The translations under genes and the position numbers were made by a program. Positions 7,527 through 49,900 of a stretch of 64,000 bases of DNA are shown piece by piece. Origin of the DNA: Chrysiogenes arsenatis DSM 11915 (GTDB lineage Bacteria; Chrysiogenota; Chrysiogenetes; Chrysiogenales; Chrysiogenaceae); assembly GCF_000469585.1 (NCBI RefSeq), contig NZ_AWNK01000004.1:40311-104310 (forward strand), read 5' to 3'. Within the stretch, counting starts at the first letter, position 1. Each line of letters begins with the position of its first letter. The notes beneath the pieces are model-generated. The model did not search any database, was not told the DNA's origin, and saw nothing but the letters and a program-made list of their open reading frames with translations.

Positions 7527-7542
7527 GGTGTCCCTGCTTCGA

Positions 7543-10359: not shown

Positions 10360-10373
10360 AAGAACACCTCTTA

Positions 10374-22895: not shown

Positions 22896-23857
22896 TCTTG
22901 CGAAACCAACGGATTTTTATTGGAGGCATCAGCATGAAACTTCGGCGATATATTTCCCACCACAACACGGTTGCGCCCCTGGCGTTTCGCGAGATAGAGG
23001 GCATCGTCTGCCACACCGATCAACATTTCCAAGGTGTTCTCTGTACTCCCTGAATATTCGGCAACACCTATACTAACCGTAATGCGCAGATGAATATCAT
23101 TATAGGTAATGATCGCACATTCAATCGCGGAACGAAGCCGTTCTGCCAATATAAAAGCATTCTCAGCCGATGTTTCTGGCAAAATACAACAAAACTCTTC
23201 GCCCCCATACCGCCCAACAATATCCACAATGCGCACCGCTTGCTGTAAGATGGTCGCCATTTCGCGCAAAACATAATCACCACATAAATGACCGTGGGTA
23301 TCGTTGACCACCTTGAAATGGTCAATATCGATCATAAACAGGCAGATTGATTTACCAAACCGGCGCGCTCTGGCAATTTCTGCGGCAAGACAAGAATCAA
23401 GATGACTTCGGTTGTAAAGCCTCGTCAGATGATCGAGTTTGCTCATTTCAATCAGTCGGTGTTCGTACATGACGTAGTCAGTTGCGTCCTGAATGGTAAT
23501 AAAGATCCGTGTGATGACCCCGCTCTCATCACGAATCGGCCCCGCCGTGCAATTCTGCTGCATAGCAGGAAGATATTCGGCAGAACCATGAGGATTTTTC
23601 ATTGGAATCAGGTAGTGGTGAAGTTTTTGCGAAAAAGTAGAATAATTGCCGAACTGAAATACACTTTGCACAAAACGCTTAAACGCGGCGGTTTTTAATT
23701 CGGGATAAAATTCATAGATCTCTTTCCCGACAATATCCTCTTCGCGAATGCAACTATGCATCGTCATCCAACGGTTCCACGTCGTAACCCGCATTTCGCG
23801 ATCTAAGACGACGATACCCATACTGATGGTGGCAAAAATCTGTTGGTGCTCAAGCAT
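22892..23857 (-). CDS. PAS-GGDEF diguanylate cyclase
   Basis: N-terminal PAS-like region (GIVVLDREMRVTTWNRWM). GGDEF domain with GGEEF and RxxD (RIVD) five residues upstream. 4-nt overlap with cheA and 8-nt overlap with the cheC-like gene. Confidence 0.9.
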   Translation of the reverse strand: MLEHQQIFATISMGIVVLDREMRVTTWNRWMTMHSCIREEDIVGKEIYEFYPELKTAAFKRFVQSVFQFGNYSTFSQKLHHYLIPMKNPHGSAEYLPAMQQNCTAGPIRDESGVITRIFITIQDATDYVMYEHRLIEMSKLDHLTRLYNRSHLDSCLAAEIARARRFGKSICLFMIDIDHFKVVNDTHGHLCGDYVLREMATILQQAVRIVDIVGRYGGEEFCCILPETSAENAFILAERLRSAIECAIITYNDIHLRITVSIGVAEYSGSTENTLEMLIGVADDALYLAKRQGRNRVVVGNISPKFHADASNKNPLVSQE

Positions 23858-33696: not shown

Positions 33697-34551
33697 TTAT
33701 TCCCGCAGGGATATTTCTTTGTCCCACTCCCAGTAAAACGTGAGGTAAGGTTCGTTTGGGCGCCTCCACCCGAGTGAGATATGGCCAAGCATGGCATCGG
33801 GAAATCTTGAGAGGATCTGGATCACCGATGCGCGGCGAGAAATACTCAAGATCTCAAAGCATTGATCCTGCACGCACGGTAAGATATCCCTAATGGCTAC
33901 GTTTAAATCATACACTCGCAAATCCACCCCTTGGCTCTGTGGCGGAGTGTTGACGTACAGAATGTCCAGTTTTTTTTCGCCATCCACAGTTGCGACACCA
34001 ATCCGATCAAGTAGGCTACCGAAGATCGGTTCAGTAACAACCTCAGGAAGCAGTAAGGGAATCGTGGCTATGGTAGCACCGGGAACCATGTGGTAAGAAG
34101 TCACGCGCTCAAGTTTCCCACTTCGAGCCCGCCATTTGTAGCCACGACACCACAATGCCGATGGTTGCCAATAAAGTTGTTCTCCAACTTGCGTGGACAA
34201 ATGAACGGGAAATTCAAGATAGAGCTTGATGACCTCTGGCGTCGCTGACGACACGTTTTCCGGAGAGACTACCGCCGATTCAATTGCCAGATAACAAAAA
34301 TTTGCACGATCCCAATCGGCAAGAATTGATTCAGATACTATGTTCGGAACACCGCCAATCTCCTGAAAATGGGAAAACAATTCCATAGGGTCGAGATTCT
34401 GTTTATCAAACCCAAAAAGCAATCTACTGCCATCAAAGCCATTTGGTGTAATTTGCAGCGAACGTTCCCACCCTACCACTCTTGAACCCAACCAATGAGC
34501 GATTTGATAATAAACATCAAGAGTCAGAAGCTTATTGGAGTGGTTACTCAT
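33697..34551 (-). CDS. Hypothetical protein (284 aa), last gene of the operon
   Basis: Long ORF whose start overlaps the SecA-like gene stop by 8 nt. It has no signal peptide, TM segment or motif I recognise. Confidence 0.6.
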   Translation of the reverse strand: MSNHSNKLLTLDVYYQIAHWLGSRVVGWERSLQITPNGFDGSRLLFGFDKQNLDPMELFSHFQEIGGVPNIVSESILADWDRANFCYLAIESAVVSPENVSSATPEVIKLYLEFPVHLSTQVGEQLYWQPSALWCRGYKWRARSGKLERVTSYHMVPGATIATIPLLLPEVVTEPIFGSLLDRIGVATVDGEKKLDILYVNTPPQSQGVDLRVYDLNVAIRDILPCVQDQCFEILSISRRASVIQILSRFPDAMLGHISLGWRRPNEPYLTFYWEWDKEISLRE

Positions 34552-36502
34552 AACTGGTAAATGTCATCCTTTTTTGACTTTCGCGTGTTGCCGTGTTCAT
34601 AAATCGACGTAAGCGAAAGGCTTTTAACTCAGCTCGGTGCTGTGTAAGTCGAATCATTGTTGTCCATAATTTATTATGGGGCCAGTGTTCTGCCAAAGAA
34701 CACAGAACGCGCAAAACGCATTTTGGCAACACGGCTCGCATAATCCCATCCTCAAGCGAAACCAGTGGGTACGCTTCGCCCGGATTTCCCTGCCGCCCAG
34801 CGCGACCGAAAAGTTGCCAGTCAATGCGAGCCGACTCATGCGGCTCCATCATGATGACGCGTAACCCTCCTGCTGCCATTACTTCCCTCGAAAGCTTAAT
34901 GTCCGTTCCCCTTCCCGCCATGTTCGTCGCTATCGTGAGTTGCCCTTTCTCGCCTGCACGGGCAACAATATCGGCCTCTTCGGTGAGCTTTTTGGCGTTC
35001 AAGAGCTGATATTTTACCCTCTCCCGATCAAGCCGACCGGCAAGTTGTTCGCTATCTTCAATGGTACGTGTTCCTACCAGCACAGGAATCTCCCGCACAA
35101 GCAATTCCCGCAAAAGATTCAATAAACCAAGCTCTTTTTCCTGTTTCGTTACAAACAGCTGAAAAGGCTGCACGATCAGTTGCGATGGAAGTCGTGAAGG
35201 AATTCGGAGTGTGCGTATCCGATAGTTAAAAAACAGCTCATGAGCAATATTCTGCAGTGTGCCACTCGCACCCGTCAGGCGCACATAATGTTTAAAATAA
35301 TTCTGAAAACTCATCCGCGCTAACGTTTTATTCGGGTGAGTGAGTGGTACACCAGCGCGAGCCTCTACTGCTTGATGCAGGCCGTAGCTCCACGATCTAC
35401 CCGGCATAGGACGGCCAGTGCCTTCATCAACAATCACCACCTCGTCGTCAAGCACTACATAATGCTGATCCTGAAGAAAGTAATCACGCGCTAGCACAGC
35501 CTGCGTAAATAAATCATGGCGTCTATGTCGGCCTCGCCAAATAGGGGGAAGCTCTTGAGCCATCTTTTCCATTAACTGTTCACCATGTGTCGTCCAACGC
35601 ACATCTCGGTGCAGCGAACTACACTGATAATCTCGGGGCGACTGTAATCTATCGACCAGCGTGCGTGCGACAAGAATAGCTTCGTGTAGTACTGGATTAT
35701 GATCTGCTCCAGAAATAATCATCGGAGTAATGGCTTCATCAATCAAAATATTATCGGCTTCATCGACAATTGCGGTATGAATGCCGCGCATCAGTAATCG
35801 ATGTGCGGTTTGCCCTTGAAGCATACGCACACTCATGGTCAGAGGCGTCACGGAGCCGCCGAAAGTGATTTGATCGGTCAGATAGTCGGCTAAGAGCTGC
35901 TTGGCCGTTGAATACACAACATCGGCAAGATACTGCGTTGGCTTCTCTTCCTGAGTATGGGTTTGCAGCACCGTAGCAACGGAAACACTGCAAAATTCGT
36001 AGAGCGGTGCCAACTCAGTAGCGTCACGCTCGGCTAAGTAGTCATTGGCAGTAATGACGTGACAAGGTCGGTTGCTCCACCCGAAAAGAATAGCGAGTAA
36101 GCCAATCGTAAGAGTTTTCCCCTCCCCTGGTGCTAGCTGTACCAAATATCCATCAAACATGGCGAGAATGGCTGCCATTTGCACTTGATATGGTTCCATG
36201 CCCAGCAGTCGCACCGATGCAAGTTGAAGGAGAGCAAGTGTTTTATGCAATAACAACCGTTCTGCAGAGAGTTGACCGGCAAGCGCGTGCAAGCGCATTG
36301 CATTCAGCTGATGGATCAATGCTTCTGGAGTCAAATCAGCGAGAGCGCGATAGTGCCGACCAATACCATCTGCTTCTTGCAGATAGTCACTCACTAGTTT
36401 TTTTTCTCGCCAGCGATGCCGCACCAGATGCCATTTTACGATGCACCAATACGGCTCTTTCGGGAGTTTTTTTAACGATGGAAGTTGCAACGATGCGAGC
36501 AT
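34544..36502 (-). CDS. SecA-like ATPase (NBD1, PPXD, NBD2) lacking the C-terminal translocation domains
   Basis: Segments line up with canonical SecA: LGMEPYQVQMAAILAMFDGYLVQLAPGEGKTL (Walker A), ITANDYLAERDA, IVDEADNILIDEAITPMIISG, DEGTGRPMPGRSWSYGLHQAVEA and TLARMSFQNYF. Further matches are PVLVGTRTIEDSE, LNAK, TIATNMAGRGTDI and HESARIDWQLFGRAGRQGNPG. The protein ends ~80 aa after that last motif. Confidence 0.85.
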   Translation of the reverse strand: MLASLQLPSLKKLPKEPYWCIVKWHLVRHRWREKKLVSDYLQEADGIGRHYRALADLTPEALIHQLNAMRLHALAGQLSAERLLLHKTLALLQLASVRLLGMEPYQVQMAAILAMFDGYLVQLAPGEGKTLTIGLLAILFGWSNRPCHVITANDYLAERDATELAPLYEFCSVSVATVLQTHTQEEKPTQYLADVVYSTAKQLLADYLTDQITFGGSVTPLTMSVRMLQGQTAHRLLMRGIHTAIVDEADNILIDEAITPMIISGADHNPVLHEAILVARTLVDRLQSPRDYQCSSLHRDVRWTTHGEQLMEKMAQELPPIWRGRHRRHDLFTQAVLARDYFLQDQHYVVLDDEVVIVDEGTGRPMPGRSWSYGLHQAVEARAGVPLTHPNKTLARMSFQNYFKHYVRLTGASGTLQNIAHELFFNYRIRTLRIPSRLPSQLIVQPFQLFVTKQEKELGLLNLLRELLVREIPVLVGTRTIEDSEQLAGRLDRERVKYQLLNAKKLTEEADIVARAGEKGQLTIATNMAGRGTDIKLSREVMAAGGLRVIMMEPHESARIDWQLFGRAGRQGNPGEAYPLVSLEDGIMRAVLPKCVLRVLCSLAEHWPHNKLWTTMIRLTQHRAELKAFRLRRFMNTATRESQKRMTFTSYE

Positions 36503-36504
36503 GC

Positions 36505-38652
36505 TTACTGGATCTGATAGCGTGATTGTAATAGCTGCCGCACTGCCAGAGCTATTTGCTCCAGAAGCGGTCTGGGCGACAATGCAATACGCATGACACC
36601 AGGAGCACCATCATAGAAAGCCGTTGGTGATTCTGAAAAACGCGCAATCACCTCAAAAAACGGCTCATCAGTTCGTAATCTCCCTTGAGCATCAGCTTGA
36701 GCAAAGAGCGTACCACCTCCTTGAAGTGCGAGTGCCGAAGAAGGGAGCTCGTGCTTCTGATACGGAATAAACTGCAGATCATGACTCTCCAGTGGCGAAG
36801 TAAACTGCCCAGGCAGACGGATTTCGGCACGTAGCAAGTTCGATCCGAAAAGATCTCCTGCCTGCTCTTGGGTAACAACACCGACAAACTGCTGCTTGCC
36901 CGGAGTAATCATTACCCCTAAACGCTCTCCACGCATAAAATGCGAATTGACCCGCGCCGGCATCACATCACTTACCCAGATCCCATCAGTCGGTGCCACC
37001 GTCTTGAGTCGATCAAGTCGTTTGTCAAGTTCATCCAGACGCCCCACCAGAAACGACTCGCGGTCATAGAGCGCTTTTAAATCACCCTGCTTACCATCCG
37101 TTGCTTTGCGGATAAGCCAACGAGTTTCCACCAATTGTTGCCCTGTCAGTTCATACTCCAGTTCTAATTCTGGATTGATAAACTCCATCAACACACTGCC
37201 TTGCTGCACGGTATCGCCAGAACGAACGACCAGCGCTGTCAAGGTTCCACCGGCTTCCGCATACAACGGCATCCGCTGCTCAGACAAAAGCACCCCCGGC
37301 GCAACAAGGGCATACGGCAGAGGAAATGTTGCCAATACCAGCAGAATGAGCAGCGGGGTAACGGCAGAAACAACGATGGCACGACGGCGATTCTGCCGTA
37401 ATTCGCTGCTTTTACGAAGATATTGCACGAGTTTCAACGTGGGGCCAATGAGCCACATGTAGCACATTGCGAGTAACATTAAAACACCGAGAAACAGTGA
37501 AAGGTCGGCCATATAAAGCAAAATCGCCACCATAACGAACAGGCGGTAACCAAAACTTGCGGCACCATACCCATAATACCAGTAACGTTCGTTACGGTTT
37601 TCCGCCGGCTCCTGCGCATCTTTGGTGCCAAGAAGTACTACGTTCGCAATATAATGCCACTGACGCCCCGCTTTCTGATAGAGATTCGGCAAATCAATCA
37701 GATCGGAGAGGACATAATAGGCATCAAATTTCAGCAACGGATTTCCATTAAAAACAAAACTCGAAATAGAACCAATAATCATGATGTTAAAAGCAAGACC
37801 ATTGACAAACCCGGGTGCTGTCAACCCCCAAACAATCGCCGCCAACGCCGCAAAAAACAACTCAACATACAGACCAGAGACTCCGACAAATGCGCGGTGC
37901 CACTTACTGCGCATTGACCATGACGAGCTCACATCAATGTAAGGAAGCGGAGCCAGCGCGATAAACATCACCCCAAGCGTATAGACATCACCACCAGAAC
38001 GGCGACATGCTATTGCATGCCCCATTTCATGAAGAAATTTCAAGAGAAACATGGCGACATAAAGCCACAAAAGGTTATCGACGGCTAAAATCCCTTGTGC
38101 CTGACTCGTAAACGATCCGAAATGGTCAATCACCGACTTCGCACCAAACAAAACCACAAGCAACCAACCAACAAAAGACCATCGCGAAAAAAAACGTTGC
38201 AGCCATCCGATATTGTTCTTCAGAAATTCATTCGGATTCCAAAGTGGAATTCTAAAATAGAGAAATGCCAGCAGGTGAGAAAGCTTTTCCTTGCGCCGCT
38301 GCTCCGCGTAGCGCTCGAAAATTGATTCGCTCTTGCCCTGTGAGCGGAAGAACAGAAGGCTCATCTGATGCAGTTGGGATAATAACATAATGACGGCATC
38401 TTGACTCGGTGCATCTTCGGGATACTCTTCCGTAAATGCTATCCAAAGCTCTTCAACCGTTCTTTCCGGAGTAAGGCGCGCAAGGAACAGATACGCCGGT
38501 TCCTGAACGCGGTAGTACTTCTCAGAACAACTATCTTGCAGCACATACCAGACCTGATCGCGATAGATCTGTTTATGAATGCGGATCGTCGGCAGTAAAC
38601 CAAGCCGCAGTGTCGCAACCTGATACCAAGATTCGCTGAATGTCGCAGACAA
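36505..38652 (-). CDS. Polytopic M50 (site-2 protease)-family protein with PqqD-like N-domain and C-terminal MFP/HlyD-like periplasmic module
   Basis: HEMGH at residues 208-212 within a TM segment, and NPLLKFDAYY at residues 304-313 within another. There are about eight hydrophobic segments between residues 150 and 450. The N-terminal residues ~37-100 are PqqD-like. The C-terminal 260 aa have lipoyl-type half motifs (AEAGGTLTALVVRSGDTVQQGSVLMEF and VAPTDGIWV) and a beta-barrel-like tail. Confidence 0.8.
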   Translation of the reverse strand: MSATFSESWYQVATLRLGLLPTIRIHKQIYRDQVWYVLQDSCSEKYYRVQEPAYLFLARLTPERTVEELWIAFTEEYPEDAPSQDAVIMLLSQLHQMSLLFFRSQGKSESIFERYAEQRRKEKLSHLLAFLYFRIPLWNPNEFLKNNIGWLQRFFSRWSFVGWLLVVLFGAKSVIDHFGSFTSQAQGILAVDNLLWLYVAMFLLKFLHEMGHAIACRRSGGDVYTLGVMFIALAPLPYIDVSSSWSMRSKWHRAFVGVSGLYVELFFAALAAIVWGLTAPGFVNGLAFNIMIIGSISSFVFNGNPLLKFDAYYVLSDLIDLPNLYQKAGRQWHYIANVVLLGTKDAQEPAENRNERYWYYGYGAASFGYRLFVMVAILLYMADLSLFLGVLMLLAMCYMWLIGPTLKLVQYLRKSSELRQNRRRAIVVSAVTPLLILLVLATFPLPYALVAPGVLLSEQRMPLYAEAGGTLTALVVRSGDTVQQGSVLMEFINPELELEYELTGQQLVETRWLIRKATDGKQGDLKALYDRESFLVGRLDELDKRLDRLKTVAPTDGIWVSDVMPARVNSHFMRGERLGVMITPGKQQFVGVVTQEQAGDLFGSNLLRAEIRLPGQFTSPLESHDLQFIPYQKHELPSSALALQGGGTLFAQADAQGRLRTDEPFFEVIARFSESPTAFYDGAPGVMRIALSPRPLLEQIALAVRQLLQSRYQIQ

Positions 38653-38655
38653 TTC

Positions 38656-40536
38656 CTACCTCCAGAGCGCAAGACGGATACGATTCAGCGTCTTGTGTGT
38701 ATAGATCCAGAAGTACGACCGTGGTTGCACATGAATTTTTGCCACCCCAGTCATACCAGGGCGCCACCACGTTTCACCATCCTCTTCAAGTTGAGCAATC
38801 ACGGTAAACCGCGCCCCCTCCTGCGACTTCACCTCAGCCATTGGAATTACGCGACTGATTCGCAGGGGAATTTTCCGCCCTGGCTGGCTGACCAGCGCAA
38901 ATTCGCCAATACTCCCCTCGCGCACATGGTGAATGTCGTCATGCGCTACTTCAACTACCACATATACATCTTCGGTTTGTGCAATACGCAGCAGGGGTTG
39001 CCCTTTGGAAACAGGTGCTGAAATCAGCTCGCGCCGCTCCCCTTCGACCACTACCCCAGTAAAGGGAGCGTGCATATGTGCTTGCGAAAGCTGATAATTC
39101 ACCCGCTCCATACGGGCTTTCACCTGCTCAATCCGTGCCAAAGCAATCGCCAAGTCCACACTGGTAAACTCTGCCCGAGCCCGATCAGCTTCGGTTACGT
39201 TTCGCTGTAACTCCGCTTGGAGTTCGGCAAGTTGCATCAGCAAATCTTGCACATCAAGCGTCAGCAACGGATCACCTTCCACCACCTCGTCACCACTGGT
39301 GACATAGGCATCGATGATCACCCCCTCAAAAGGGGCCGTAATGAGCCGAGTATTGTCCGTAACAAACTGCCCAGTCCCTTCAACAGTATGCATGGTGGAG
39401 AATGTCAGCGAGCCAAACAACAGTAAAGATCCAGCCAGTACCAACGACTTAACCAGCAGATTTTCTGCCCCCGCAAGACGGCCAATTGTGCGCAGAGCAA
39501 CCGTCCGCAACCGATCGCGCCATTCGGCATCTTGCAAATACAATTGTTCCAGCCGCGGCATCACGGTTCGTGCCAGAAAGTGCACCGCCTCGCAAGGAAG
39601 TTCCGGCAAATCATCACGGTAGTTGACGAGTGTCAATGCGAACACGGTATGGCCGTGAGAGTTCACAAGCGGAAAAGTCATAATAGATCGTGCCGCAAGG
39701 TGGGTTTGTAGTTGTTGATGAGCAAGGGTAATTACCTTTCCATCCGAAGCACGGTGACTTGAATAATGAATGGCGGCAACCTGATCCACCGACTCCTCTA
39801 AAGCCGCTTCAAACAGTCTAACGGTATCGGTTTTTTGCTCAAAGCGCTCATAGTGGCTGATCCCCTTTACCCGTGTATACGCCCCCTCTTTCCAGCCCAG
39901 CACGACCTGATCAAAGGCGCTCTGGTAATTAACGATGCCATTGGCTAACGCATACACAGCCGCTTGAAAGTTTTCGGATTGATATATTTCGCTCAGCAAG
40001 TCGAGCAAGCTTGCGAGCATGTTTTCGTGCGCCGTTTTCCGCGCATCAACTGCTTTTGACTCTGTACCTAACAACGCTGACGTGTTCAAGACGGACTCAT
40101 CCTGCACAAAGTCGAGCATTAACTGGGCACGCACAAGAATGTCGTTCAAACGTGTTGCAGCATCACAATCAATCGCTAAAATCAAAAAATATGGGGTAGG
40201 ACACAACGCACGGAGCGCGACGAAGCCGATTGACCCATCGATATGGGGATGGGGTGGACGGTGGGCAAATCCACTGGCTTCGGCCCGCTGCAGAAAAAGG
40301 AAAAATTCCTGCGTGTCTAACAAAGGCTTTGACGGGCTTTTCTGTTCTAAATCGCTGGTAGCAACCAAAAGCAGTTGATGTTCCTGTACCAAAATGAGTT
40401 CCGCACTCGGCACACGGCATACGTTCTTGACGAGCACCAGATAATCTATCCACGATGCTTGACCTGCTTGAGACTGAGTGACCCGTACGTGGTATAATTC
40501 CTGTAATCGTTGGCGAAATGCTTCTTTAGAGGCCAT
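38656..40536 (-). CDS. HlyD/MFP-family periplasmic adaptor with ~370-aa cytoplasmic N-terminal domain and one TM
   Basis: Single TM LLVKSLVLAGSLLLFGSLTF near residue 375. Then ITAPFEGVIIDAYVTSGDEVVEGDPLLTLD, a coiled-coil hairpin, HAPFTGVVV and a beta-barrel region ending GMTGVAKI. Confidence 0.8.
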   Translation of the reverse strand: MASKEAFRQRLQELYHVRVTQSQAGQASWIDYLVLVKNVCRVPSAELILVQEHQLLLVATSDLEQKSPSKPLLDTQEFFLFLQRAEASGFAHRPPHPHIDGSIGFVALRALCPTPYFLILAIDCDAATRLNDILVRAQLMLDFVQDESVLNTSALLGTESKAVDARKTAHENMLASLLDLLSEIYQSENFQAAVYALANGIVNYQSAFDQVVLGWKEGAYTRVKGISHYERFEQKTDTVRLFEAALEESVDQVAAIHYSSHRASDGKVITLAHQQLQTHLAARSIMTFPLVNSHGHTVFALTLVNYRDDLPELPCEAVHFLARTVMPRLEQLYLQDAEWRDRLRTVALRTIGRLAGAENLLVKSLVLAGSLLLFGSLTFSTMHTVEGTGQFVTDNTRLITAPFEGVIIDAYVTSGDEVVEGDPLLTLDVQDLLMQLAELQAELQRNVTEADRARAEFTSVDLAIALARIEQVKARMERVNYQLSQAHMHAPFTGVVVEGERRELISAPVSKGQPLLRIAQTEDVYVVVEVAHDDIHHVREGSIGEFALVSQPGRKIPLRISRVIPMAEVKSQEGARFTVIAQLEEDGETWWRPGMTGVAKIHVQPRSYFWIYTHKTLNRIRLALWR

Positions 40537-40548
40537 AAAACCACACCA

Positions 40549-41433
40549 TCACAGCTGCACTCGCGCTTTTAATCCTGGCCGAAACCGATTATCCACGTTG
40601 CGATATTCAACCTTCACTTCGACTAATCCACTTGCCGGATCAGCTACTGGTGAGAGAAAAGAAATCGCCCCTTGTGCGCGCGTGGATTCCACTGCAAAAT
40701 CAACTTTTTGCCCTATCGTAAGCTTCGCTGCGATAGCACTCGGAATACTGATGCGGATGTAAATATACGAAGTATCAACCAGTTCGATGATCGGCTCACC
40801 CGCCTGAGCCCATTCCCCTTTTTTGAGGCGAATTTGGGTGATAAATCCTTTACTGGGCGCGAGTAGAGTCCGTTGGGCAAGGACTTGTCGGCCAATTTTA
40901 TAATCGTAGTCTTGTTTTTTTTCTTCTAACTCAAGCAGTGCAACTTCGCTCTCTGTTGTGACTCTATTGATGATCATTTGATTGAGCTCATCAAGACTGA
41001 TTGATCTACTTTCATGGTACAACTCAAGAGCGGATTTTACTTGCTCCACTTGCAGCAGTAACCGAGCGCGAGCCCCGTCCAATGCACTCTTGTCCCGCAT
41101 CAGCGTTTCAAGGCGCGACAGTTCAAGTTGCTCAATATGTTGCTCCAGCACCAAGAGCGGTGTTCCCTGATCGACGTAGGCTCCTTCTGCGATCTTGACT
41201 TCACTGACCACACCGCTAACCGCCATTGCGAGCAAGTAGCGCTCACGAGGGTACACCACACCTACCATCGCATCACTTATTGCAACCGTCTCATGTGGAC
41301 TCACCTCTGGACTAAATGAACGGAAATCGCCACGCGAACGAGTGCTTGGAGCCTCGCTCGCTATAGCGAATACATTCAAGGACAAAAACAGCAGGAAAAA
41401 AATACAGTTGGTCAATCGCATAGTGCCCTTCAA
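40549..41433 (-). CDS. Secreted MFP/HlyD-family periplasmic adaptor
   Basis: Signal peptide ending AIA|SEA. Lipoyl halves (VSGVVSEVKIAEGAYVDQGTPLLVLE and LAPSKGFITQI), a coiled-coil hairpin, and a beta-barrel with LVEVKVEY. Confidence 0.85.
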   Translation of the reverse strand: MKGTMRLTNCIFFLLFLSLNVFAIASEAPSTRSRGDFRSFSPEVSPHETVAISDAMVGVVYPRERYLLAMAVSGVVSEVKIAEGAYVDQGTPLLVLEQHIEQLELSRLETLMRDKSALDGARARLLLQVEQVKSALELYHESRSISLDELNQMIINRVTTESEVALLELEEKKQDYDYKIGRQVLAQRTLLAPSKGFITQIRLKKGEWAQAGEPIIELVDTSYIYIRISIPSAIAAKLTIGQKVDFAVESTRAQGAISFLSPVADPASGLVEVKVEYRNVDNRFRPGLKARVQL

Positions 41434-41437
41434 AATT

Positions 41438-43027
41438 CTACAGTGCTTCTACGTCAAACTGAATGCCGAGTTCCTGCAACAGGCTACCATCCGAAAGCTG
41501 AAGACTGATTTTTGCCAGTTCATATTGAATCTCGGCATCCACCATACGGATTATACCCACGTTGAGATTATCTTCGCGCTCAATCATATCAATGTAGCGC
41601 GCTACACCGCGGTCAAACCGTTCCCGCTCAATTTCAAGCAGTTCCTTGAGGACAGTGGTATTCTGCCGATGACGATCCAACTCTTGATACGCTTGATCTA
41701 CCTGTGCAAGCCGCAACTGAAGTTGATTTGAAAGGTCTACCTTTACCGCTTCAGCCTGATATTGATTTTGGGTAATTCGTGAAAGCGCTATGGATTCTTT
41801 CGAACGCGCACTTTGATTACCACCTAAAGGGATGGAAAACTCAACACCAGCATACCAGTTGGGATAACGCTCCGAAAATGCTTCTTCAAAAGTTCTGCCG
41901 TAGCGCTCATCATACCGAAGGCTACTTTGGCCATAGCCCGCAACAAAATCGAGTTTTGGACGCAACTCATCGCGGGCTATCGCCAGAGAATGTTCTTCCA
42001 GCGCAATACGTTCTATTGCAATTCCGTAATTCGGCCAAACACTGAGAACCTGCTCAAAGTAAGTCTGAAAACTTTCCGGCTGTTGCCACGCGGTAGTGTC
42101 AGGCTCTGAAGTCGTCTGAAAAACAACGTGCTGATATTCATTGGCTGAGAGGTTGAGAACCCCCTTAATCGCACTTTTCACTTGTTCATACCCGCGCTCT
42201 ACGACAAATGATTCTGCCTGACGAAGTAGAAGGGTAGAACGGGCTTCGGTCATAGCAGTTTGCGGTAAGCGCCCAGCTTGCACGCGCCGCTCAATATCGG
42301 TGAGGATATTATTCGCATTTTTCAATGAATCTGCATTCAAAGCTTTCATCTGTTCGGCACGGTACAGCCGCCAGTAGAGGCTGAGCGCATCGTATGACTT
42401 ACTCAGAATCTGTTGCTGAGTTTCCTGTTTGCGGATTTCAATCTGTTTTTCTGATTGTGCGATCCGATTCTCAATTTGAGCCGCCCCAAATCCGCGCAAA
42501 ATTGGTTGACGGATACGGAAATTCAGCGAACCGACATTGTCGTTAATCCCAGTAGGATCATTCACCGAGCTCGTATTATTATAGCGTTTATGCCCTTCAT
42601 ATTCGACAGAGACCTCAGCCCCAGAAACGACTAACGTGCGCACGCCAAACTGAAAACGACCATTGCGGTCTATCGTCGTGTCATTAGGGGCTAACGGATT
42701 ATTTTCGGTTTTTCGCTCATCAGCACGGAGTATTGAAAAAAATTCCATCTCGTATGCGGCGCGATCATGCTGTAGTTGCGCCTCAGCAATTTTTTTCTGC
42801 TCTGCACTTACGAGCACCTCAGGATTGCGTAGGAGCACAAGGTGCACGAAAGACTCTTTATTTAGAGCCACAGCACCTTGTTGTATTTGCGTCAGCACTT
42901 GTTCGTGGCGATTCATGTCACCATGAGAAGGTTGACTCTCGGCCCACGCGGGAATGGCCAGACACGCTGCCGAAACCGCTAAACCTGCAAAAACTTTTTG
43001 GGGGCAAGAAAGTATATTCCGTATCAT
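41438..43027 (-). CDS. TolC-family outer-membrane channel protein
   Basis: Signal peptide ending PAWA|ESQ. Two-fold repeat organisation with long helical and short beta segments, with size and pattern typical of outer-membrane efflux proteins. I chose ATG 43027 after AAGAGG. 4-nt gap to the next gene. Confidence 0.85.
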   Translation of the reverse strand: MIRNILSCPQKVFAGLAVSAACLAIPAWAESQPSHGDMNRHEQVLTQIQQGAVALNKESFVHLVLLRNPEVLVSAEQKKIAEAQLQHDRAAYEMEFFSILRADERKTENNPLAPNDTTIDRNGRFQFGVRTLVVSGAEVSVEYEGHKRYNNTSSVNDPTGINDNVGSLNFRIRQPILRGFGAAQIENRIAQSEKQIEIRKQETQQQILSKSYDALSLYWRLYRAEQMKALNADSLKNANNILTDIERRVQAGRLPQTAMTEARSTLLLRQAESFVVERGYEQVKSAIKGVLNLSANEYQHVVFQTTSEPDTTAWQQPESFQTYFEQVLSVWPNYGIAIERIALEEHSLAIARDELRPKLDFVAGYGQSSLRYDERYGRTFEEAFSERYPNWYAGVEFSIPLGGNQSARSKESIALSRITQNQYQAEAVKVDLSNQLQLRLAQVDQAYQELDRHRQNTTVLKELLEIERERFDRGVARYIDMIEREDNLNVGIIRMVDAEIQYELAKISLQLSDGSLLQELGIQFDVEAL

Positions 43028-43063
43028 CGTCAACCTCTTTGTATCGGCATAGATGGCCATGGC

Positions 43064-43121
43064 TCAAAAAAATATAAACTTACCACCGTAAACTCCATTT
43101 ATTATAGAGATTACGGTGGTG
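43064..43121 (-). terminator. Hairpin plus U-tract between sapC and the tolC-like gene (terminator or attenuator)
   Basis: 10-bp stem ACCACCGTAA (43082-43091) / TTACGGTGGT (43111-43120) with a 19-nt loop. On the minus strand it is followed by AAGTTTATATTTTTTTGAG. Confidence 0.45.
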
Positions 43122-43128
43122 AATGTTT

Positions 43129-43875
43129 TTATGACTCAGCGATTACAGGCTCTGTTTCACCTGGCTTCAGGCTCGTCTGCCCATCTTTTAGCATCGCCAA
43201 GCGTTCAAGTTGGCTGAGTGAGGTTAAATGAGCAAAGATAGGCGCAAAGTAGCGCTTTTCGCGTATTTCAAGAAAGCGCTTATCGGAAAGATTATTCAAA
43301 CGCTCCTCATTGATCACATAACAACCAGTTACGTTGCGAATCTGCCCACCGTAGCGCACACGCATACTGAGCGGAGTAAAGAGATTATTTTCAGCCATGA
43401 ACGTACAGAATGCCTTCGTGAAGATCTCCATTTGTTGCATTTCGCCAAGGTATTTTTTTACATTGTCGATGATCACGGTTGGCTCACCTTTTTCAAACAA
43501 CGCTTGGCCATCTTTTGTCCCAACACAGTCCGCATCTTCATCAATGCAAACTGTAAATTGATCAGCTTGATCACTTTTAGCGAGGGCAAAAGGGTAACGG
43601 CGGATAATGGCTGGCACATATGAAGCCTTCCAACTCCCATCTTCAGCGATAAATAGATTTTCTCCGGCATCAAGGCCAAACATCACAACAGGCTTAAATT
43701 CATCCTGCTCTTTGTCTTCAAGGAAAACAATCGGATACACCGATGCCGCCCGAGCAAATTCATGCACCATGAGTGACGCAATATGAAACTTACTGGCAAA
43801 GGCAAAGCTGCTAATAGGTGTCACTTTTGTCTTCGCATGTTTGTCCTTGTTAAGCGGAACCAATTTTTTAAACAT
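43129..43875 (-). CDS. SapC-family protein
   Basis: The N-terminal pattern LVPLNKDKHAKTKV...F......H...L...EF..AA..YPIVFLED and ~250-aa length match SapC-family proteins as I know them. The gene starts 26 nt after the giant-gene stop. Confidence 0.75.
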   Translation of the reverse strand: MFKKLVPLNKDKHAKTKVTPISSFAFASKFHIASLMVHEFARAASVYPIVFLEDKEQDEFKPVVMFGLDAGENLFIAEDGSWKASYVPAIIRRYPFALAKSDQADQFTVCIDEDADCVGTKDGQALFEKGEPTVIIDNVKKYLGEMQQMEIFTKAFCTFMAENNLFTPLSMRVRYGGQIRNVTGCYVINEERLNNLSDKRFLEIREKRYFAPIFAHLTSLSQLERLAMLKDGQTSLKPGETEPVIAES

Positions 43876-43901
43876 TCTTGTCCTCCATAACGATATGAAA
43901 T

Positions 43902-46900
43902 TTAAAACTCAAATTCTTCCTCTGTGTAGAAGTCGAAAATGAAACTATCTTGAATACTTGAGCCAAAGCTCGAAAACTGGAAGTCTCCATAGAAGTTAAC
44001 CACCTTGCTGGAAGTATACGGCATTTGCAGGTTGAAACCTGGCTCTAAGCCTACTGGCGCTTGCTGCATAAATCCAAAGTCGAAGTTGATGCCACCAAAC
44101 ATTCCGTCAGAGATGCCAAGATCGCTCAAGTTCATAAAGGAACTCATGGTGGCTTTCTGTAAACGTGACAAGCTTGCATGATCAAGGAATGTTGTCGCAT
44201 TGTGCAAACGCAGAGCATCCATATTTTCTATCGATAATTCTTGGATTGTTTTACTTGCACTAGCCGAAGCGCCTCCCCCTTGAGATCCACTGAAGCGCAC
44301 TGACTCAAAAGCACTCAATTTGAATTCCGCTCTCACTGGACCATGAACAACGGCGTGATTACCCACAGAAATCACGTACACTCGCTGATCAATACCACGG
44401 ATACCAAATATATAGCTATCACCAGTAGCATCATCAACAACACTATACAGTTGCCCAGGACCGACAATGCCATGAATCTGCGCTGCATCTATCTTCAGTA
44501 AGTCAGCGCGGATAGCTTCAAGTTGAGGTATCAGGCTTGCTACTGGCTGATCAATAAAAAACGGTATCGTCTTGATAAACACCTGATTGGCAACAATATT
44601 GGCTGCTTGTGTCCCGAGCGAACTCTGGATACGATATTCCGAACTTTCAAGCCACACATCACCACCCGTCGCAACGTGAGCAATCAACAAAATACTATCG
44701 GTCGAGGTAAAGTAAATATCGCCTCGCTCTGATAATGTCTGTGCACTTGCTTTCATCTCTATGACCGGAGCCGTGTAACGAACTTCCCCCTGCCCCGTCA
44801 GCGACAGAGTGGCCTCTTGCACAATACTTTTTCCAGATGAAAGGACAACGGTACTATCGACGCCTGAGATATTCATAGCAAGAATCAGTGAACCATGTAC
44901 GGCATGGAGTTCGATAGTGCCATGACTACTCGTTCCATTCAGCATTGAATCCGTAATTTCTTCAACAAGAGCTTCATTGGTCATCCGCAGCACCGTTAGC
45001 TCACCGAACTGGTCATTATCACCAATGCGCAAATCTTCTTGGGCGGCAAGGAAGATACCACCATGACCAATATCCGCACTCAGTGAATCGACTTCAACCA
45101 CAAAAGGACGCCCTGATTCACCAAGTTGACTACCAGTAACCCGCAGATACTTTGCTAGGATATTCACGGTACTTGAAGGAGCACTGGTTATGACGCCACC
45201 AACCAGACTGACCGCAGTTGGAGTTGTTACATGAGAGATGGACATACTGTGAGTTGCTTCGATGCGAATATTGTTCTGAGTTTGCAATAGAGCTTTAGCT
45301 GTCATGGAGACTGATTGGGCACTAATGTCGAGCGTCGCATCTCCTGTAATATGAACCAGACTGTCGATAAACTCCACATTGCCGTTCCGCGCTAACAACG
45401 ACACATTACCACTGCTGGCAATGTCGCTCTGCACGATAATGGATCCATTTTCAACTTCTATTTGTAAGTGCTCGCCAGAGAAATTCAACGCACCATCAAG
45501 TATAAAGTTTCGCTGCTCACCGGAAACGCCTGCCTGCACCATTATGACAGTTACGGTGTCGGTTGCCAATTCAAGCTCAGACAAACGCAGATCACCACTA
45601 GTGGTAATGGTATTTAACCCCGCTATGGTGAATACCCCCTGCAGGGTAGTAGTCCCGCCACTGTGAGCACTTAGATCGCCACCAACCGTGAGGTTTCCTT
45701 CAATTGTCAAAGTTTCATCGGTTTTGATAGTCGTGTCACCGGTGATAGTGATTGCATCGCTGAGTATTACTGCTCCGGTTCCGGTGATAGCAAGGTCGCC
45801 GCCAATCTCTAGTGTGCCTTCGACGGTAGTTGCTCCGCCGACTGTCAGGGTAACATTGGCGCTGGTGAAAGTTCCTTCTATCAGCAGGGCATCGGTTGAT
45901 GTTAGTTCAGTACTTCCTTCAACGATAAAGATTCCGTCTAGGATGCTCTCGCCTGCACTGCTTGTGGTAAGGGCGCCACCAACAGTGAAGTTTCCTTCAA
46001 GTGTCAGGTCAGCATCGGTCTCGATAGTCGCGTCACCAATAATAGTGATTGTATCGTTGAGCATCACCGCTCCGGTTCCGGTGATAGCAAGGTCGCCGCC
46101 AATATCTAGTGTGCCTTCGACGGTAGTTGCTCCGCCGACTGTCAGGGTAATGTTGGCGCTGGTGAAAGTTCCTTCTATCAGCAGGGCACCGGTTGATGTT
46201 AGTTCAGTACTTCCTTCAACGATAAAGGTTCCATCTAGGATGCTCTTGCCAACACTGCTTGTGATGAGGGCGCCACCAACAGTGAAGTTTCCTTCAATCG
46301 TCAGGTCGGCATCGGTCTCGATAGTCGCGTCACCGCTAATGGTGATTGCATCGCTGAGCATCACCGCTCCAGTTCCGGTGATAGCAAGGTCGCCGCCAAT
46401 ATCGAGCGTACCTTCGACTGTAGTTGCTCCACCGACTGTCAGGGTGACGTTGGCACCGCTGAAGGTTCCGGTAATCGATAAGTCTGCTTTCGCATCGATA
46501 GTCGTGTCACCGCTAATGGTGATTGCATCGCTGAGTATTACTGCTCCGGTTCCAATGATAGCAAGGCTGCCTGCAACATCCAGCTCACCTTCGATAGTGG
46601 TTGTTCCGCCGATTGTCAGGGTGACATTGGCGCTGGTGAAAGTTCCTTCTATCAGCAGGGCACCGGTTGATGTTAGTTCAGTACTTCCGTCAACGATAAA
46701 GGTTCCATCTAGGATGCTCTTGCCAACACTGCTTGTGATGAGGGCGCCACCAACAGTGAAGTTTCCTTCAAGTGTCAGGTCGGCATCAGTCTCGATAGTC
46801 GCGTCACCGCTAATGGTGATTGCATCGCTGAGCATCACCGCTCCGGTTCCGGTGATAGCAAGGTCGCCGCCAATATCTAGTGTGCCTTCGACGGTAGTTG

Positions 46901-49900
46901 CTCCGCCGACTGTCAGGGTAACGTTGGCGCTGGTGAAAGTTCCTTCTATCAGCAGGGCACCGGTTGATGTTAGTTCAGTACTTCCGTCAACGATAAAGGT
47001 TCCGTCTAGGATGCTCTTGCCAACACTGCTTGTGATGAGGGCGCCACCAACAGTGAAGGTTCCGGTAATCGATAAGTCTGCTTTCGCATCAATGTTGATG
47101 TCACCGTCAATGGCTATTGCATTACTGAGTATCACCGCTCCGGTTCCAGTGATATCAAAGTTGCCAGCAACATCCAGCTCACCTTCAATAGTGGTTGCTC
47201 CACCAACTGTCAGGGTGACGTTGGCACCGCTGAAGGTTCCAGTAATCGATAAGTCTGCTTTCGCATCGATGTTGGTGTCACCGTCAATGGCGATTGCATT
47301 ACTGAGTATCACCGCTCCGGTTCCAGTGATGCCAAGGTTGCCAGCAACATCCAGCTCACCTTCGATAGTGGTTGTTCCGCCGACTGTCAGGGTGACCTTG
47401 GCACCGCTGAAGGTTCCGGTAATCGATAAGTCTACTTTCGCATCGATGTTGGTGTCTCCGTCAATGGCGATTGCATTACTGAGTATCACTGCTCCGGTTC
47501 CAGTGATATCAAAGTTGCCAGCAACATCCAGCTCACCTTCAATGGTAGTTGTTCCTCCGACAGTCATGGTGACGTTGGCACCGTTGAAATCTCCGTCAAT
47601 CGTCAGGGCTGCATCAGTATCGATAGTCGTGTCACCGGTGATAGTGATCGAATCGCTGAGCATTACCGCTCCAGTTCCGGTGATGCCAAGGTTGCCGCTA
47701 ATATCCAATGTGCCAGCGACTGCGGTTGTTCCACCGACTGCCAAGGTGACGTTGGCGCCAGTAAAGGTTCCGATAATCGCCAAGCCTGCTTTCGCATCGA
47801 TGGTCGTGTCACCGGTGATAGTGATCATATCGCTGAGCGTTACCGCTCCGGTTCCGGTGATGCCAAGGTTGCCGCTAATATCCAGTGTACCAGCGACTGC
47901 GGTTGTTCCACCGACTGTCAGGGTGACATTGGCACCGCTGAAGGTTCCGATAATCGCCAAGCCTGCTTTCGCATCGATAGTCGTGTCACCGCTAATGGTG
48001 ATTGCATCGCTGAGCGTTACCGCTCCGGTTCCGGTGATAGCAAGGTTGCCTGCAACATCCAGCTCACCTTCAATAGTGGTTGCTCCACCGACTGTCAGGG
48101 TGACGGCGGCGCCGGTAAAGTCTCCTTCTATCAGCAGGGCACCGGTTGATGTTAGTTCAGTACTTCCTTCAACGATAAAGGTTCCGTCTAGGATGCTCTT
48201 GCCAACACTGCTTGTGATGAGGGCGCCACCAACAGTGAAGTTTCCTTCAAGTGTCAGGTCGGCATCGGTCTCGATAGTCGCGTCACCGCTAATGGTGATT
48301 GTATCGCTGAGCATCGCCGCTCCGGTTCCGGTGATAGCAAGGTCGCCGCCAATATCGAGCGTACCTTCGACGGTAGTTGTTCCTCCGACTGTCATGGTGA
48401 TGTTGACACCAGTGAAATCTCCATCTATCGTCAAGTCTGCTTTCGCATCGATGTTGGTGTTGCCGTCAATGGTGATTGCATTGCTAAGTGCAACGTTTCC
48501 GGTTCCGGTGATGCCAAGGTCGCCGGTACTCACCAGCCTACCTTCGACGTTAGTTGCGCCTCCGACAGTCATGGTGACACCACCGCCGGTGTATCTCCCT
48601 TTAAGTGTTAAATCATTTGTGGCAGAAAGGTTGCTACTTCCTGTTGTGCTAAAAGTACCGCGCAAGATACTTGCACCATCGCTGTTCGCGACGAAGTCGC
48701 CAGCAACGGTTAACTCGCCTATGATTGTCAGGTCTGCTTTCGAATCGATGGTCGTGTCACTGCGCAGCTTGAAATCACCAATAAGAACCATATTGCCCTG
48801 ACTGTTGATTGTACTGGTGCCGCTTACCGTGAGTGACAGCGCACTTGCCTGATTGCTGGTGAGCGCTCCAAGGGTATCAATGTGCAACGTTCCGGCAACT
48901 GCATTTCTACCAAAGAGGTACGTGTCGCCATCTATAAAGAGCGTCGCATCACCGTTGAGCGTAGTGACGTTCAGGCTCGCAATGCGCACCTCGCTCTGAG
49001 TATTTGCGCCAAGGGAAATATCGCCATTGGTGGCGCGCATGGTGGTTTTGCCACCAAGTCGCAATACATCATCGGTATCATTGGCCAGTGCTATTGATTG
49101 GGCGGTGAATGAGTTATCGCCCGTCACGATAAGCTGTGTACTGGCGCCAGCGGTAATACTCTCTGGCGTAGTCACATTAAGGCGTCCCGCCGTATTGCTG
49201 CCTACAAACGTCACGGCATTATCAAGTTCCAATACCACTGCGCCAGCACTGTTGACCGTCAAGGTTCCGGCAGAGAAAAAGTCACCAACAGCATTGCCAA
49301 GACGAATTTCCCCGCCAGAGAATGCGGCATGACCTGTAATCGTAAGTTGTGCTTGCGTCAGGTTGGAAAGCACATTGACCGCTTGCGCACGAAGATCTCC
49401 ACCGACAGTGATATTCGATAGGGTTAAATTGTTGGCAGCCTTCAAATGGACATTTTTGGCTTGATGCACCGTCACGGCACCACCAAAGTTATGACTATTG
49501 TCAAATACAATATCCGATGCCGCATCAGCCGTGAGCTTTGTGATTCCCGTGACCGACAACTTGCCCGTCGCGCCATCATTAAGAGAACCCGATACCACCA
49601 GTTCTAGTGTTTTAGCAGTGCTTTCCCCCGCTAACACCATATCGCCATCGTGTGTTATGCGCACATTGCCATTGCTCACAAAGGTCAGAGTGCCAGTAGT
49701 GAAGGAATCGGTATCGATAGTAACGGCACTGCCTGAGAAACGGGAATTCTCTTCAACCGCAATCTGCGCCCCCTCTAGAGTACTCAGCTCATGAACCGCT
49801 GTCGCAACAAGATTGCCGGTGACGGTCAGATTTGCCAGTGTCAAGGTATTCACATCGCTGAGTGTTACATTCCGAGCGCCGAGCACGGTCACTGCGCCAC

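Follow-up and report, generated by a model that had tools for sequence, protein, structure and literature searches.

Introduction

The SapC family takes its name from the sapCDEF loci of Campylobacter fetus and Campylobacter rectus, which export the S-layer protein by a type I system and in which SapDEF constitutes the type I secretion system (T1SS). The sapCDEF locus is reportedly the subject of a paper by Thompson et al. in 1998. Named since that year, the family has neither an assigned function nor a solved fold, and to our knowledge the role of SapC in Campylobacter has likewise not been established. Here we examine the sapC gene of Chrysiogenes arsenatis DSM 11915, a member of the Chrysiogenota, within a stretch of 64,000 nucleotides (NCBI RefSeq assembly GCF_000469585.1, contig NZ_AWNK01000004.1, positions 40,311 to 104,310 of the forward strand) that we refer to as the window; positions given below without a locus number are counted from its first letter. 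An original prediction for this gene had derived its name from Campylobacter sapCDEF and had taken SapDEF to be a T1SS, both of which agree with the literature.

Three further described systems are relevant to this locus. A conserved module built around a secondary SecA_DEAD protein was described by Kamneva, Poudel and Ward in 2015 (PMC4452313), who proposed an ATPase role for the SecA-like protein; the module contains no ATP-binding cassette (ABC) transporter. Since 2015 this SecA-like/M50/HlyD module has remained purely computational, and its cargo has never been assigned. In Chlorobium chlorochromatii, sapC (Cag_662) is found together with the genes of the giant beta-helical proteins Cag_663 (26,805 aa) and Cag_665 and of the TolC-like Cag_664; Cag_662-665 are co-expressed, and SapC and TolC were seen as the likely export route (bioRxiv 10.64898/2026.03.19.712371). 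Finally, clusters consisting of genes for a TonB receptor, SapC, a cupin (JmjC-like) and a tryptophan halogenase were reported by Iyer et al. 2010 (PMC2938197).

The broader question is how bacteria manage, without an ABC transporter, to export chains that range from 6,000 to over 13,000 residues. The comparisons presented here narrow the possible roles of SapC in such export. Our leading reading, to which we give about half of our credence, is that SapC is a soluble cytoplasmic factor that acts on the giant cargo before, or at, its hand-over to the exporter.

The SapC locus of Chrysiogenes arsenatis

All genes of the locus lie on the reverse strand, and in the direction of transcription they encode a giant repeat protein, SapC, a TolC-like outer-membrane factor (OEP), a 294-aa periplasmic adaptor of the HlyD or membrane fusion protein (MFP) type, a 626-aa protein, a 715-aa M50-like protein, a 652-aa SecA-like protein and a 284-aa protein. 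The slot that an ABC exporter would hold had been assigned to the M50-like/SecA-like pair, and this assignment stands: OEP and MFP genes are present, and no ABC exporter was detected among the locus genes and most of the window open reading frames (ORFs) of at least 150 aa, which were scanned. An FhaC-like gene is likewise absent from the locus.

Sequence, predicted structure and conservation of SapC

The sapC gene occupies positions 43129-43875 of the reverse strand, starts with ATG according to the ORF list and encodes a protein of 248 aa. The Pfam model PF07277 matches this protein over its full length (model positions 1-220 of 220; E=3.3e-69; 233.3 bits, against a cut-off of 28.9), which confirms the family assignment that had been made from the translated sequence, and its sequence matches the NCBI entry 'SapC family protein [Chrysiogenes arsenatis]' with 100% identity. 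Neither Pfam nor NCBIfam yielded a second family for SapC, and no hydrophobic segment, signal peptide, lipobox or transmembrane (TM) segment is predicted in it; the protein is predicted to be cytoplasmic. Its size is that of a single-domain member of the family, most of the best 150 relatives having about 230-270 aa and the shorter ones being fragment-like.

The AlphaFold2 model of SapC is confident (predicted local distance difference test score, pLDDT, 87.8; predicted template modeling score, pTM, 0.82) and combines an N-terminal half rich in beta structure with a helix of 29 residues, a second sheet and, at the C-terminus, a helical bundle. It corresponds to no solved fold, and a sequence search of the PDB with a profile of 61 SapC sequences returned nothing at E<=10. 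In an alignment with members of 25-32% identity, the window SapC keeps F26, E39, W82, Y86, P88, R92, Y94, P95, F96, D112, G184 and S219. Down to 25% identity E39, W82, Y86, P88, R92, Y94, P95, F96 and D112, among others, are invariant, and H13, N73 and C110 are nearly so.

SapC is also the most conserved gene of its locus. Compared with the window proteins, it ranks first in all 31 loci that hold the five module genes, with a median identity of 62%, against 28% for the OEP, 32% for the adaptor, 34% for the 626-aa protein, 41% for the M50-like protein and 39% for the SecA-like protein; the loci were picked by SapC similarity, and the comparison remains valid within each locus. The slowest evolution at the locus is unexpected for an accessory that is optional. 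The family as a whole is large, comprising 4,484 clusters at 50% identity (E<=1e-3), among which the clade of the window protein collapses to a handful of representatives.

Genomic neighborhoods of close SapC homologs

Close homologs of SapC were surveyed with one genome per species, taking the best 80 of 173 relatives (57-83% identity), and each locus was searched with the window proteins by tblastn within the available flank. The 80 genomes are mostly from Gamma- and Betaproteobacteria, with a few metagenome-assembled genomes (MAGs) labeled as other phyla. At least one core gene of the module, that is, the gene of the 626-aa, M50-like or SecA-like protein, lies in the flank in 44 of the 80 loci. 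A giant ORF stands beside SapC with no module in the flank in 14 more, including Marinomonas vulgaris, where a giant of 13,529 aa is divergent from SapC, and an Azoarcus MAG with the order OEP, SapC, giant. Secretion genes and giants are thus enriched around SapC, as the original prediction had anticipated.

The gene order is recurrent as well. Twenty-nine loci share the order SapC, OEP, MFP, 626-aa protein, M50-like protein, SecA-like protein (26 follow it exactly, 2 also contain the 284-aa gene and 1 breaks off ahead of the SecA-like gene), and an alternative order, in which the genes of the 626-aa, M50-like and SecA-like proteins precede SapC, OEP and MFP, recurs in MAGs labeled Burkholderiaceae, Bordetella and Betaproteobacteria. 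The OEP gene directly follows sapC in 42 of the 70 loci that have at least 1.5 kb downstream. Annotated records show the gene order of the window in Oceanospirillum sanctuarii and Spiribacter salilacus (upstream gene of 10,763 aa). Together with these two species, Pigmentiphaga litoralis and Pseudacidovorax intermedius are candidate cultivable hosts of the complete locus.

When the survey is restricted to the 33 loci with at least 5 kb on each side of SapC, the module, a giant or both are present in 25. Four of the exceptions are Marinomonas species, in which a TPR-cytidylyltransferase, an APH-type kinase and an ATP-grasp enzyme flank an orphan-like close SapC; others adjoin a sigma factor, a phosphoenolpyruvate-utilizing enzyme or a DUF349 protein. 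The Marinomonas region with the kinase and the associated genes is found at positions 6293-7948 of locus L010 and in the neighboring genes. A kinase gene of the APH/EcKL type is also located within the Oceanospirillum module (L001, 6639-7625), between the adaptor gene and that of a 616-aa counterpart of the 626-aa protein. Spiribacter salilacus carries two close copies of SapC (L014 and L017), one in a full locus with giant and module and the other with neither in its flank. Proximity of the sapC gene to those of its presumed partners is thus not obligatory.

A reverse survey started from an alignment of 11 M50-like proteins and yielded 80 metagenome loci with 36-54% identity. SapC is encoded in 18 of these 80 loci, which were picked solely by the M50-like gene, and in 10 of the 27 module loci in which the module begins with the OEP gene and 1.3 kb or more is available upstream. 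SapC thus accompanies the module often but not obligatorily. Taken across both surveys, dozens of species from several classes and phyla show the arrangement of SapC, giant and module, which is not due to chance.

Genomic neighborhoods of distant SapC homologs

We also sampled 17 distant, plasmid-borne members of the family with 23-33% identity to the window SapC. In nine of these loci a surface protein of more than 1,000 aa is encoded adjacent to SapC or within about 5 kb of it. Three are of the two-partner-secretion (FhaB-like) type: FhaB-type proteins of 5,969 aa in Azospirillum and 4,670 aa in Thalassospira are each followed by SapC, and in Terrarubrum a filamentous adhesin of 6,362 aa is followed by an annotated FhaC, IalB and SapC. 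In Rhodobacteraceae M382 a LEPR-XLL protein of 3,473 aa is divergent from SapC, which is followed by an adaptor; in Sphingobium baderi SapC precedes a protein of 7,138 aa; and in Aminobacter a protein of 4,158 aa lies about 4 kb from SapC. Sulfitobacter has a DUF4214 protein of 1,047 aa followed by SapC and a DUF6447 protein, with TolC and glycosyltransferases nearby, and in Yersinia ruckeri a beta-strand-repeat protein of 1,675 aa is followed by a hypothetical protein and SapC. The ninth locus, in Ruegeria, encodes in succession an Ig-like protein of 1,283 aa, SapC, a T1SS ABC exporter and HlyD. A parallel to sapCDEF with the order cargo, SapC, ABC, HlyD therefore does exist. One of the other loci has the order TonB receptor, SapC, cupin, Trp halogenase, and the remaining seven show no obvious theme.

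The common thread among the distant members is a very large, beta-rich exported neighbor, whatever its export route. The association of SapC with secretion genes that had been proposed is thus borne out as an enrichment, but SapC is not a marker of T1SS as such, given that distant members stand by two-partner-secretion giants and in TonB-receptor/halogenase clusters.

Small DUF6447 proteins are encoded at or near distant SapC genes on three plasmids (L091, 8827-9045; L093, 7711-7971; L089, from 18486). Four of the distant SapC proteins carry a C-terminal extension, three of them ending in D-x-(I/L)-D-(F/W)-(S/G) and the fourth in ...GTFSFGQ.

The giant protein and the signature of the presumed cargo

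The presumed cargo is the giant repeat protein encoded at 43902-63995 of the reverse strand. Its reading frame runs without a stop up to base 64000, and its 6,697 aa are therefore a lower bound, the N-terminus being probably located outside the window. Gly, Thr, Ala, Leu and Ser are abundant in the protein, Cys occurs once, and 14 DUF5649 repeats, the only Pfam family detected, are located in its C-terminal half. The 6,697 aa contain no GGxGxD motif and match no RTX family in Pfam, no two-partner-secretion or hemagglutinin family was matched in this part of the giant, and NCBIfam models matched neither its C-terminal 400 aa nor the first 400 aa present in the window.

The giant ends in ...FIFDFYTEEEFEF, and the extreme C-terminal FDFYTEEEFEF (43905-43937, reverse strand) appears in a comparison of tail motifs as a variant of a tail shared among related loci. 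Large ORFs that end before sapC, or before the OEP gene where SapC is missing, share the tail [FV]-[DE]-Y-W-x-[ED]-x-[LIM]-x-[LIV], which may be summarized as F-D/E-Y-W-x-E-x-L-x-L (examples are FDYWIESLAL, FEYWLEEIVL, FEYWIEDMMF, FDYWTDEISI and VDWWLESVEL), often with LGSPGxQP..SG about 20 residues ahead of it. Loci with this tail include L019, L020, L022, L064, L066, L100, L117, L148 and L167. Applied to the last 14 aa of the 1,488 ORFs of at least 300 aa in 161 loci, the regular expression for the core of the tail matches 30, and 29 of these are such large ORFs, nearly all of them cut by a contig end. No NCBIfam model covers the motif.

The tail is present in module loci with SapC and in module loci without it, and it is missing from the giants that were read beside distant SapC genes; it therefore tracks the module rather than SapC. 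We regard it as a candidate sorting or retention signal of the SecA-like/M50 module. The resemblance of the window to sapCDEF had been advanced as the best argument that the giant is the cargo. The resemblance itself holds, but the shared C-terminal tail, which is found with or without SapC, makes the better argument.

A second signature is located at the other end of such proteins. Giants that start beside SapC or after the SecA-like gene bear an N-terminal LEPR-XLL motif (NF012209, 'LEPR-8K', E=4e-7 to 9e-10), which occurs in the giants of 31 other loci, including L085 (about 9480-9589, reverse strand), L087 (from 5074) and L035 (from 10692). With a K/R-rich stretch ahead of ...LEPRxLLSA, its layout is reminiscent of a degenerate signal peptide. 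The 6,697 aa of the giant that lie in the window contain no LEPR motif, the N-terminus being probably beyond the edge. We found no literature in which an export system is assigned to LEPR-XLL proteins.

ORFs of about 300 to about 1,600 aa that end in R(L/V)VR(A/G)GQ, IYVRR or LYVRQR recur between the cargo gene and SapC or OEP. They are found in L044, L066, L120, L146, L148, L152, L141, L133 and L167, several of them cut by a contig end. ORFs with these endings may represent a further accessory or a second cargo of the module. Within the giant gene of the window, an antisense ORF of 1,037 aa is located at 45688-48801 of the forward strand. It most likely reflects the composition of the repeats rather than a real gene; related loci have comparable long antisense ORFs across from genes that are giant or GC-rich.

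Possible roles of SapC

In the reading that we favor, the locus would export a giant filamentous surface protein in one step, by way of an envelope conduit that is type-I-like but ABC-less. This conduit would consist of the SecA-like ATPase, the M50-like membrane protein with its HlyD part, a second anchored HlyD protein, a periplasmic adaptor and a TolC-like channel. Judging from domain content, and following Kamneva et al. 2015, the SecA-like ATPase would power export, and the M50-like/HlyD protein and the 626-aa protein with its HlyD domain would make up the portion in the inner membrane and periplasm. The 294-aa adaptor and the OEP would complete a conduit of the TolC type, and the adjoining giant protein would be the substrate. 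SapC would keep a very long, aggregation-prone chain unfolded or soluble and competent for export, or would prepare the chain in some other way, thereby supplying in trans what the C39-like domain of HlyB, or SecB in the case of HasA, gives in classical T1SSs. Handling of the cargo in the cytoplasm is suggested because SapC accompanies giants across export routes, is dispensable for the machine and has no export signal.

Several observations weigh against this reading. With a median identity of 62%, beside cargo bodies that are unrecognizable across loci, SapC is conserved well beyond what one would expect of a cargo-specific chaperone, and the invariant polar residues E39, R92 and D112, together with the near-invariant H13 and C110, would also fit an enzyme. 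The eight exceptions among the 33 loci with full flanks, about a quarter, represent unrelated contexts, and a part of the family resides in TonB-receptor/halogenase clusters. Module loci without SapC also have the tail motif, and none of the three giants beside distant SapC genes whose C-termini were read carries it. In an AlphaFold2 model of SapC fused to the last 45 residues of the cargo, the tail was disordered (pLDDT 23-33), which lends no support to tail binding but is a weak test, as there is no alignment depth for the tail, the fusion is artificial and the model came without a contact map. In the reading that we favor, binding of the extreme C-terminal tail is probably not the way in which SapC acts.

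The main rival, which we hold to be somewhat unlikely but still a serious contender, is that SapC is an enzyme that modifies the giant cargo, or another envelope-bound product, before export. Such a role would be consistent with the family-wide invariance of E39, W82, Y86, R92, Y94 and D112, with the near-invariance of H13, N73 and C110 and with an evolution far slower than that of all neighbors. An uncharacterized enzyme was in fact predicted from the conservation pattern in halogenase/JmjC clusters by Iyer et al. 2010 (PMC2938197), and modifying enzymes are frequent neighbors, including the cupin and Trp halogenase, glycosyltransferases, and the APH-type kinases in the Oceanospirillum module and near the Marinomonas SapC. 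Yet SapC shows no similarity to a catalytic fold or a cofactor-binding motif and has no second Pfam or NCBIfam match, and conserved residues are by themselves no proof of catalysis. It is improbable that SapC instead aids the expression of very long genes, either through the processivity of transcription or translation or as a regulator, by way of a universally conserved partner. Such a partner would explain both the high conservation of SapC and its independence of the export route, and SapC is indeed optional and encoded beside giant genes of differing export systems; but no domain for nucleic-acid binding or of a known regulator was recognized in it, some of the clusters that contain it lack long genes, and sapC is positioned downstream of the giant gene in the window, as in many other loci, so that it would be made after the gene it is to help.

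That SapC is a structural or stabilizing partner of the TolC-like channel or the adaptor appears quite improbable. The Chlorochromatium preprint states that TolC is 'stabilised by SapC' (bioRxiv 10.64898/2026.03.19.712371), the OEP gene directly follows sapC in the 42 of 70 loci mentioned above, and the trio of SapC, OEP and MFP is kept where the rest of the module is rearranged. A protein with no signal peptide, lipobox or TM segment should nevertheless not reach the periplasm, many SapC genes have no OEP neighbor, and 17 of the 27 module loci with room upstream have the OEP without SapC. We consider it very improbable that SapC is a functionless, unrelated neighbor, even though some close homologs lie in housekeeping contexts and this large family (4,484 clusters at 50% identity) has mixed contexts overall: the surveys disfavor it, given that dozens of species across several classes and phyla share the gene order and that the 18 SapC genes among 80 loci selected by the M50-like gene exceed, by a rough estimate, the expectation for a random 20-kb stretch by orders of magnitude. 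Hardly credible, finally, is an immunity protein against a toxin domain at the C-terminus of the giant, comparable to CdiI after CdiA. A small cytoplasmic protein encoded right after a giant filamentous gene, including those of the FhaB type, would fit such a pair, but toxin-immunity pairs co-vary, whereas SapC is about 60% identical across loci and the last 400 aa of the cargo are similar in only a few close relatives. This decoupling of SapC conservation from the divergence of the cargo C-terminus led us to reject the candidate; moreover, no toxin domain was detected in the C-terminus of the cargo, SapC precedes the N-terminus of the giant in many loci, and it is also found in the S-layer sapCDEF locus and in TonB-receptor clusters.

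The view of SapC as a cytoplasmic factor acting on the cargo can be extended into a joint, broader proposal, which we consider unlikely in its entirety. In this proposal SapC would be a dedicated pre-export factor for very large beta-rich envelope proteins, with a novel fold, reused across routes comprising ABC-type T1SS, the SecA-like/M50 module, two-partner secretion and perhaps TonB-dependent receptors, and the module would be an ABC-less one-step exporter that reads the conserved termini of its cargo. The SecA-like motor and the PqqD-like/M50 protein would recognize, and perhaps cleave, the N-terminal LEPR-XLL leader, proteins of 6,000-13,000 aa would be exported N-terminus first and possibly co-translationally, and the F-D/E-Y-W-x-E-x-L-x-L tail would act as a second signal or as a retention element.

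Other genes and signals of the locus

A spacer of 26 nt (43876-43901, reverse strand), read from the sequence, separates the stop codon of the giant gene from the start of sapC. It contains a GGAGGA ribosome-binding site at 43881-43886, 6 nt before the sapC start, and the scan found no promoter-like or terminator-like site in it. Between sapC and the OEP gene, RNA folding revealed a hairpin of 39 nt (43082-43120) followed by a U-rich run (43066-43081), together forming a terminator- or attenuator-like element at 43066-43120 of the reverse strand. The 81-nt stretch 43055-43135 that contains the hairpin has a folding energy of -26.7 kcal/mol (z = -5.95, 200 shuffles). The consensus terminator scan missed the hairpin because its loop is long, and it was found by reading and folding the sequence. 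A hairpin with a T-run follows sapC in at least 12 of 53 related loci by a crude scan, in which only the count with T-rich tails is usable and GC-rich genomes yield uninformative structures. Since the signal is seen in a part of the loci and sapC and the OEP gene nearly abut in others, it is not universal. In the window, the hairpin and U-run behind sapC suggest that this gene closes the transcription unit of the cargo and that transcription terminates or is attenuated ahead of the machinery genes.

The genes that flank sapC are as first described for this locus, with the amendments that the giant probably runs past the window and that the OEP more likely starts at 43027. The OEP gene (41438-43060, reverse strand, as is the case for all genes of the locus) encodes a protein that matches PF02321 (E=6e-27) and weakly TIGR01844 (type_I_sec_TolC) and has a signal-peptide-like N-terminus. 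Its true start is probably the ATG at 43027, which is preceded by AAGAGG at 43034-43039, rather than the first ATG at 43060, which lies only 5 nt past the U-run. The 294-aa periplasmic adaptor (40549-41433) has a hydrophobic N-terminus, predicted as a signal peptide, and matches HlyD_3 and HlyD_D23 with E of about 2e-18; its best NCBIfam match is TIGR01730 (RND_mfp), just above the cut-off, and not type_I_hlyD. The 626-aa protein (38656-40536) is predicted to have a cytoplasmic N-terminal domain of about 360 aa, one TM segment (residues 360-378) and a periplasmic HlyD domain (HlyD_D23 and HlyD_3 at residues 385-594), and its N-terminal 379 aa have no Pfam match, GAF included, at E<=1.

The 715-aa protein (36505-38652) is an M50-like HExxH membrane protein (HEMGH at residue 208) with 7 hydrophobic segments, corresponding to about 7 TM segments, a weakly PqqD-like N-terminus and a HlyD-like C-terminal part, in which weak HlyD/biotin-lipoyl matches are located at residues 458-490. 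In all, three proteins of the locus match HlyD_3 and HlyD_D23. The matches to Peptidase_M50 (E=1.8e-5) and PqqD (E=3e-3) are both under the cut-offs, as is the best NCBIfam match, to the daptide_HExxH intramembrane metalloprotease (E=7e-45). In a purely inferential parallel to peptidase-containing bacteriocin exporters, the N-terminus resembling PqqD, a recognition element for ribosomally synthesized and post-translationally modified peptides (RiPPs), together with the daptide match suggests that the protein may recognize and cleave a leader, for which LEPR-XLL would be the obvious candidate.

The 652-aa SecA-like ATPase (34544-36502) matches SecA_DEAD (4.5e-71), SecA_PP_bind (6.5e-23) and P-loop_SecA (2.3e-44), and no wing/scaffold family was matched in it. 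It covers approximately positions 9-555 of SecA models about 800 long, thus being without the C-terminal wing/scaffold, and it scores below the cut-offs of every SecA and SecA2 equivalog. An equal truncation has been described for SecA-like domains within giant Omnitrophota proteins. The last gene, that of the 284-aa protein (33697-34551), overlaps the stop of the SecA-like gene by 8 nt; its product has no Pfam or NCBIfam match, similar sequence was found in just 2 of 80 related loci (L006 and L072), and its membership of the system is uncertain. The genes further downstream (SDR, SPFH/NfeD, UmuDC and others) are unrelated to the locus.

At a distance of 20-38 kb from the locus, the window encodes a group of cyclic di-GMP and sensor proteins (5397-12278, and 22892-23857 on the reverse strand), namely a GGDEF response regulator, PAS-GGDEF-EAL and PAS-GGDEF proteins and a Cache/PAS histidine kinase. 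Genes of this kind control the display of large adhesins in other bacteria.

Comparison with known systems

As annotation the locus is ordinary; its value lies in providing a testable entry into the ABC-less export of giant proteins and into a large orphan family whose fold has no match. Together with its relatives, it gives a class of cargo, marked by a conserved tail and elsewhere by LEPR-XLL, a full set of machine parts and a conserved but optional SapC.

As in Campylobacter sapCDEF, the sapC gene of the window adjoins genes for an MFP and a TolC-like outer-membrane factor and the gene of a large surface protein. The Campylobacter S-layer cargo has no classical signal peptide, and the N-terminus of the window giant probably lies beyond the edge. 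Unlike sapCDEF, the window locus has no ABC exporter (SapD) and encodes instead a SecA-like ATPase and an M50-like protein with a HlyD part, and its cargo candidate is a repeat protein of at least 6,697 aa rather than an S-layer protein. In classical T1SSs, the C39-like domain of HlyB, and SecB in the case of HasA, are cytoplasmic, act on the unfolded substrate before export and are dispensable for some substrates. The comparison of SapC with them is one of function only, there being no similarity in sequence or fold.

In the TonB-receptor clusters of Iyer et al. 2010, too, sapC comes after a gene whose product is a large, beta-rich envelope protein that is exported. Genes for a giant, TolC, MFP or SecA-like protein are missing from these clusters, and the SapC encoded there is about 28% identical to that of the window. 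The Cag_662-665 cluster of Chlorobium chlorochromatii resembles the window, by gene description, in bringing together sapC, giants and a TolC-like gene. Its order differs (sapC, giant, tolC, giant), the preprint draws no link to the SecA-like/M50 module, and the stabilization of TolC by SapC proposed there fits poorly with a SapC that has no export signal.

The module of Kamneva et al. 2015 shares with the window a second SecA_DEAD protein, an M50-like protein with HlyD, a further HlyD protein, a HlyD/biotin-lipoyl adaptor and, in some cases, an OEP. The third protein of that module has a GAF domain, which Pfam did not detect in the 626-aa protein of the window. SapC is never mentioned in that paper (PMC4452313) and no cargo is named ('large protein' and 'hemagglutinin' occur 0 times), the Chrysiogenota are not among its phyla, and we found no later literature on the SecA_DEAD/M50/HlyD module. 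The module (2015) and the sapC-giant-tolC cluster (2026 preprint) had therefore already been described, and to these the window adds a member from the Chrysiogenota. What appears to be new is the three-way link of the SapC clade, the SecA-like/M50 module and the giants that bear LEPR-XLL or the conserved tail; that SapC also accompanies giants of other export routes likewise appears to be new to the searchable literature.

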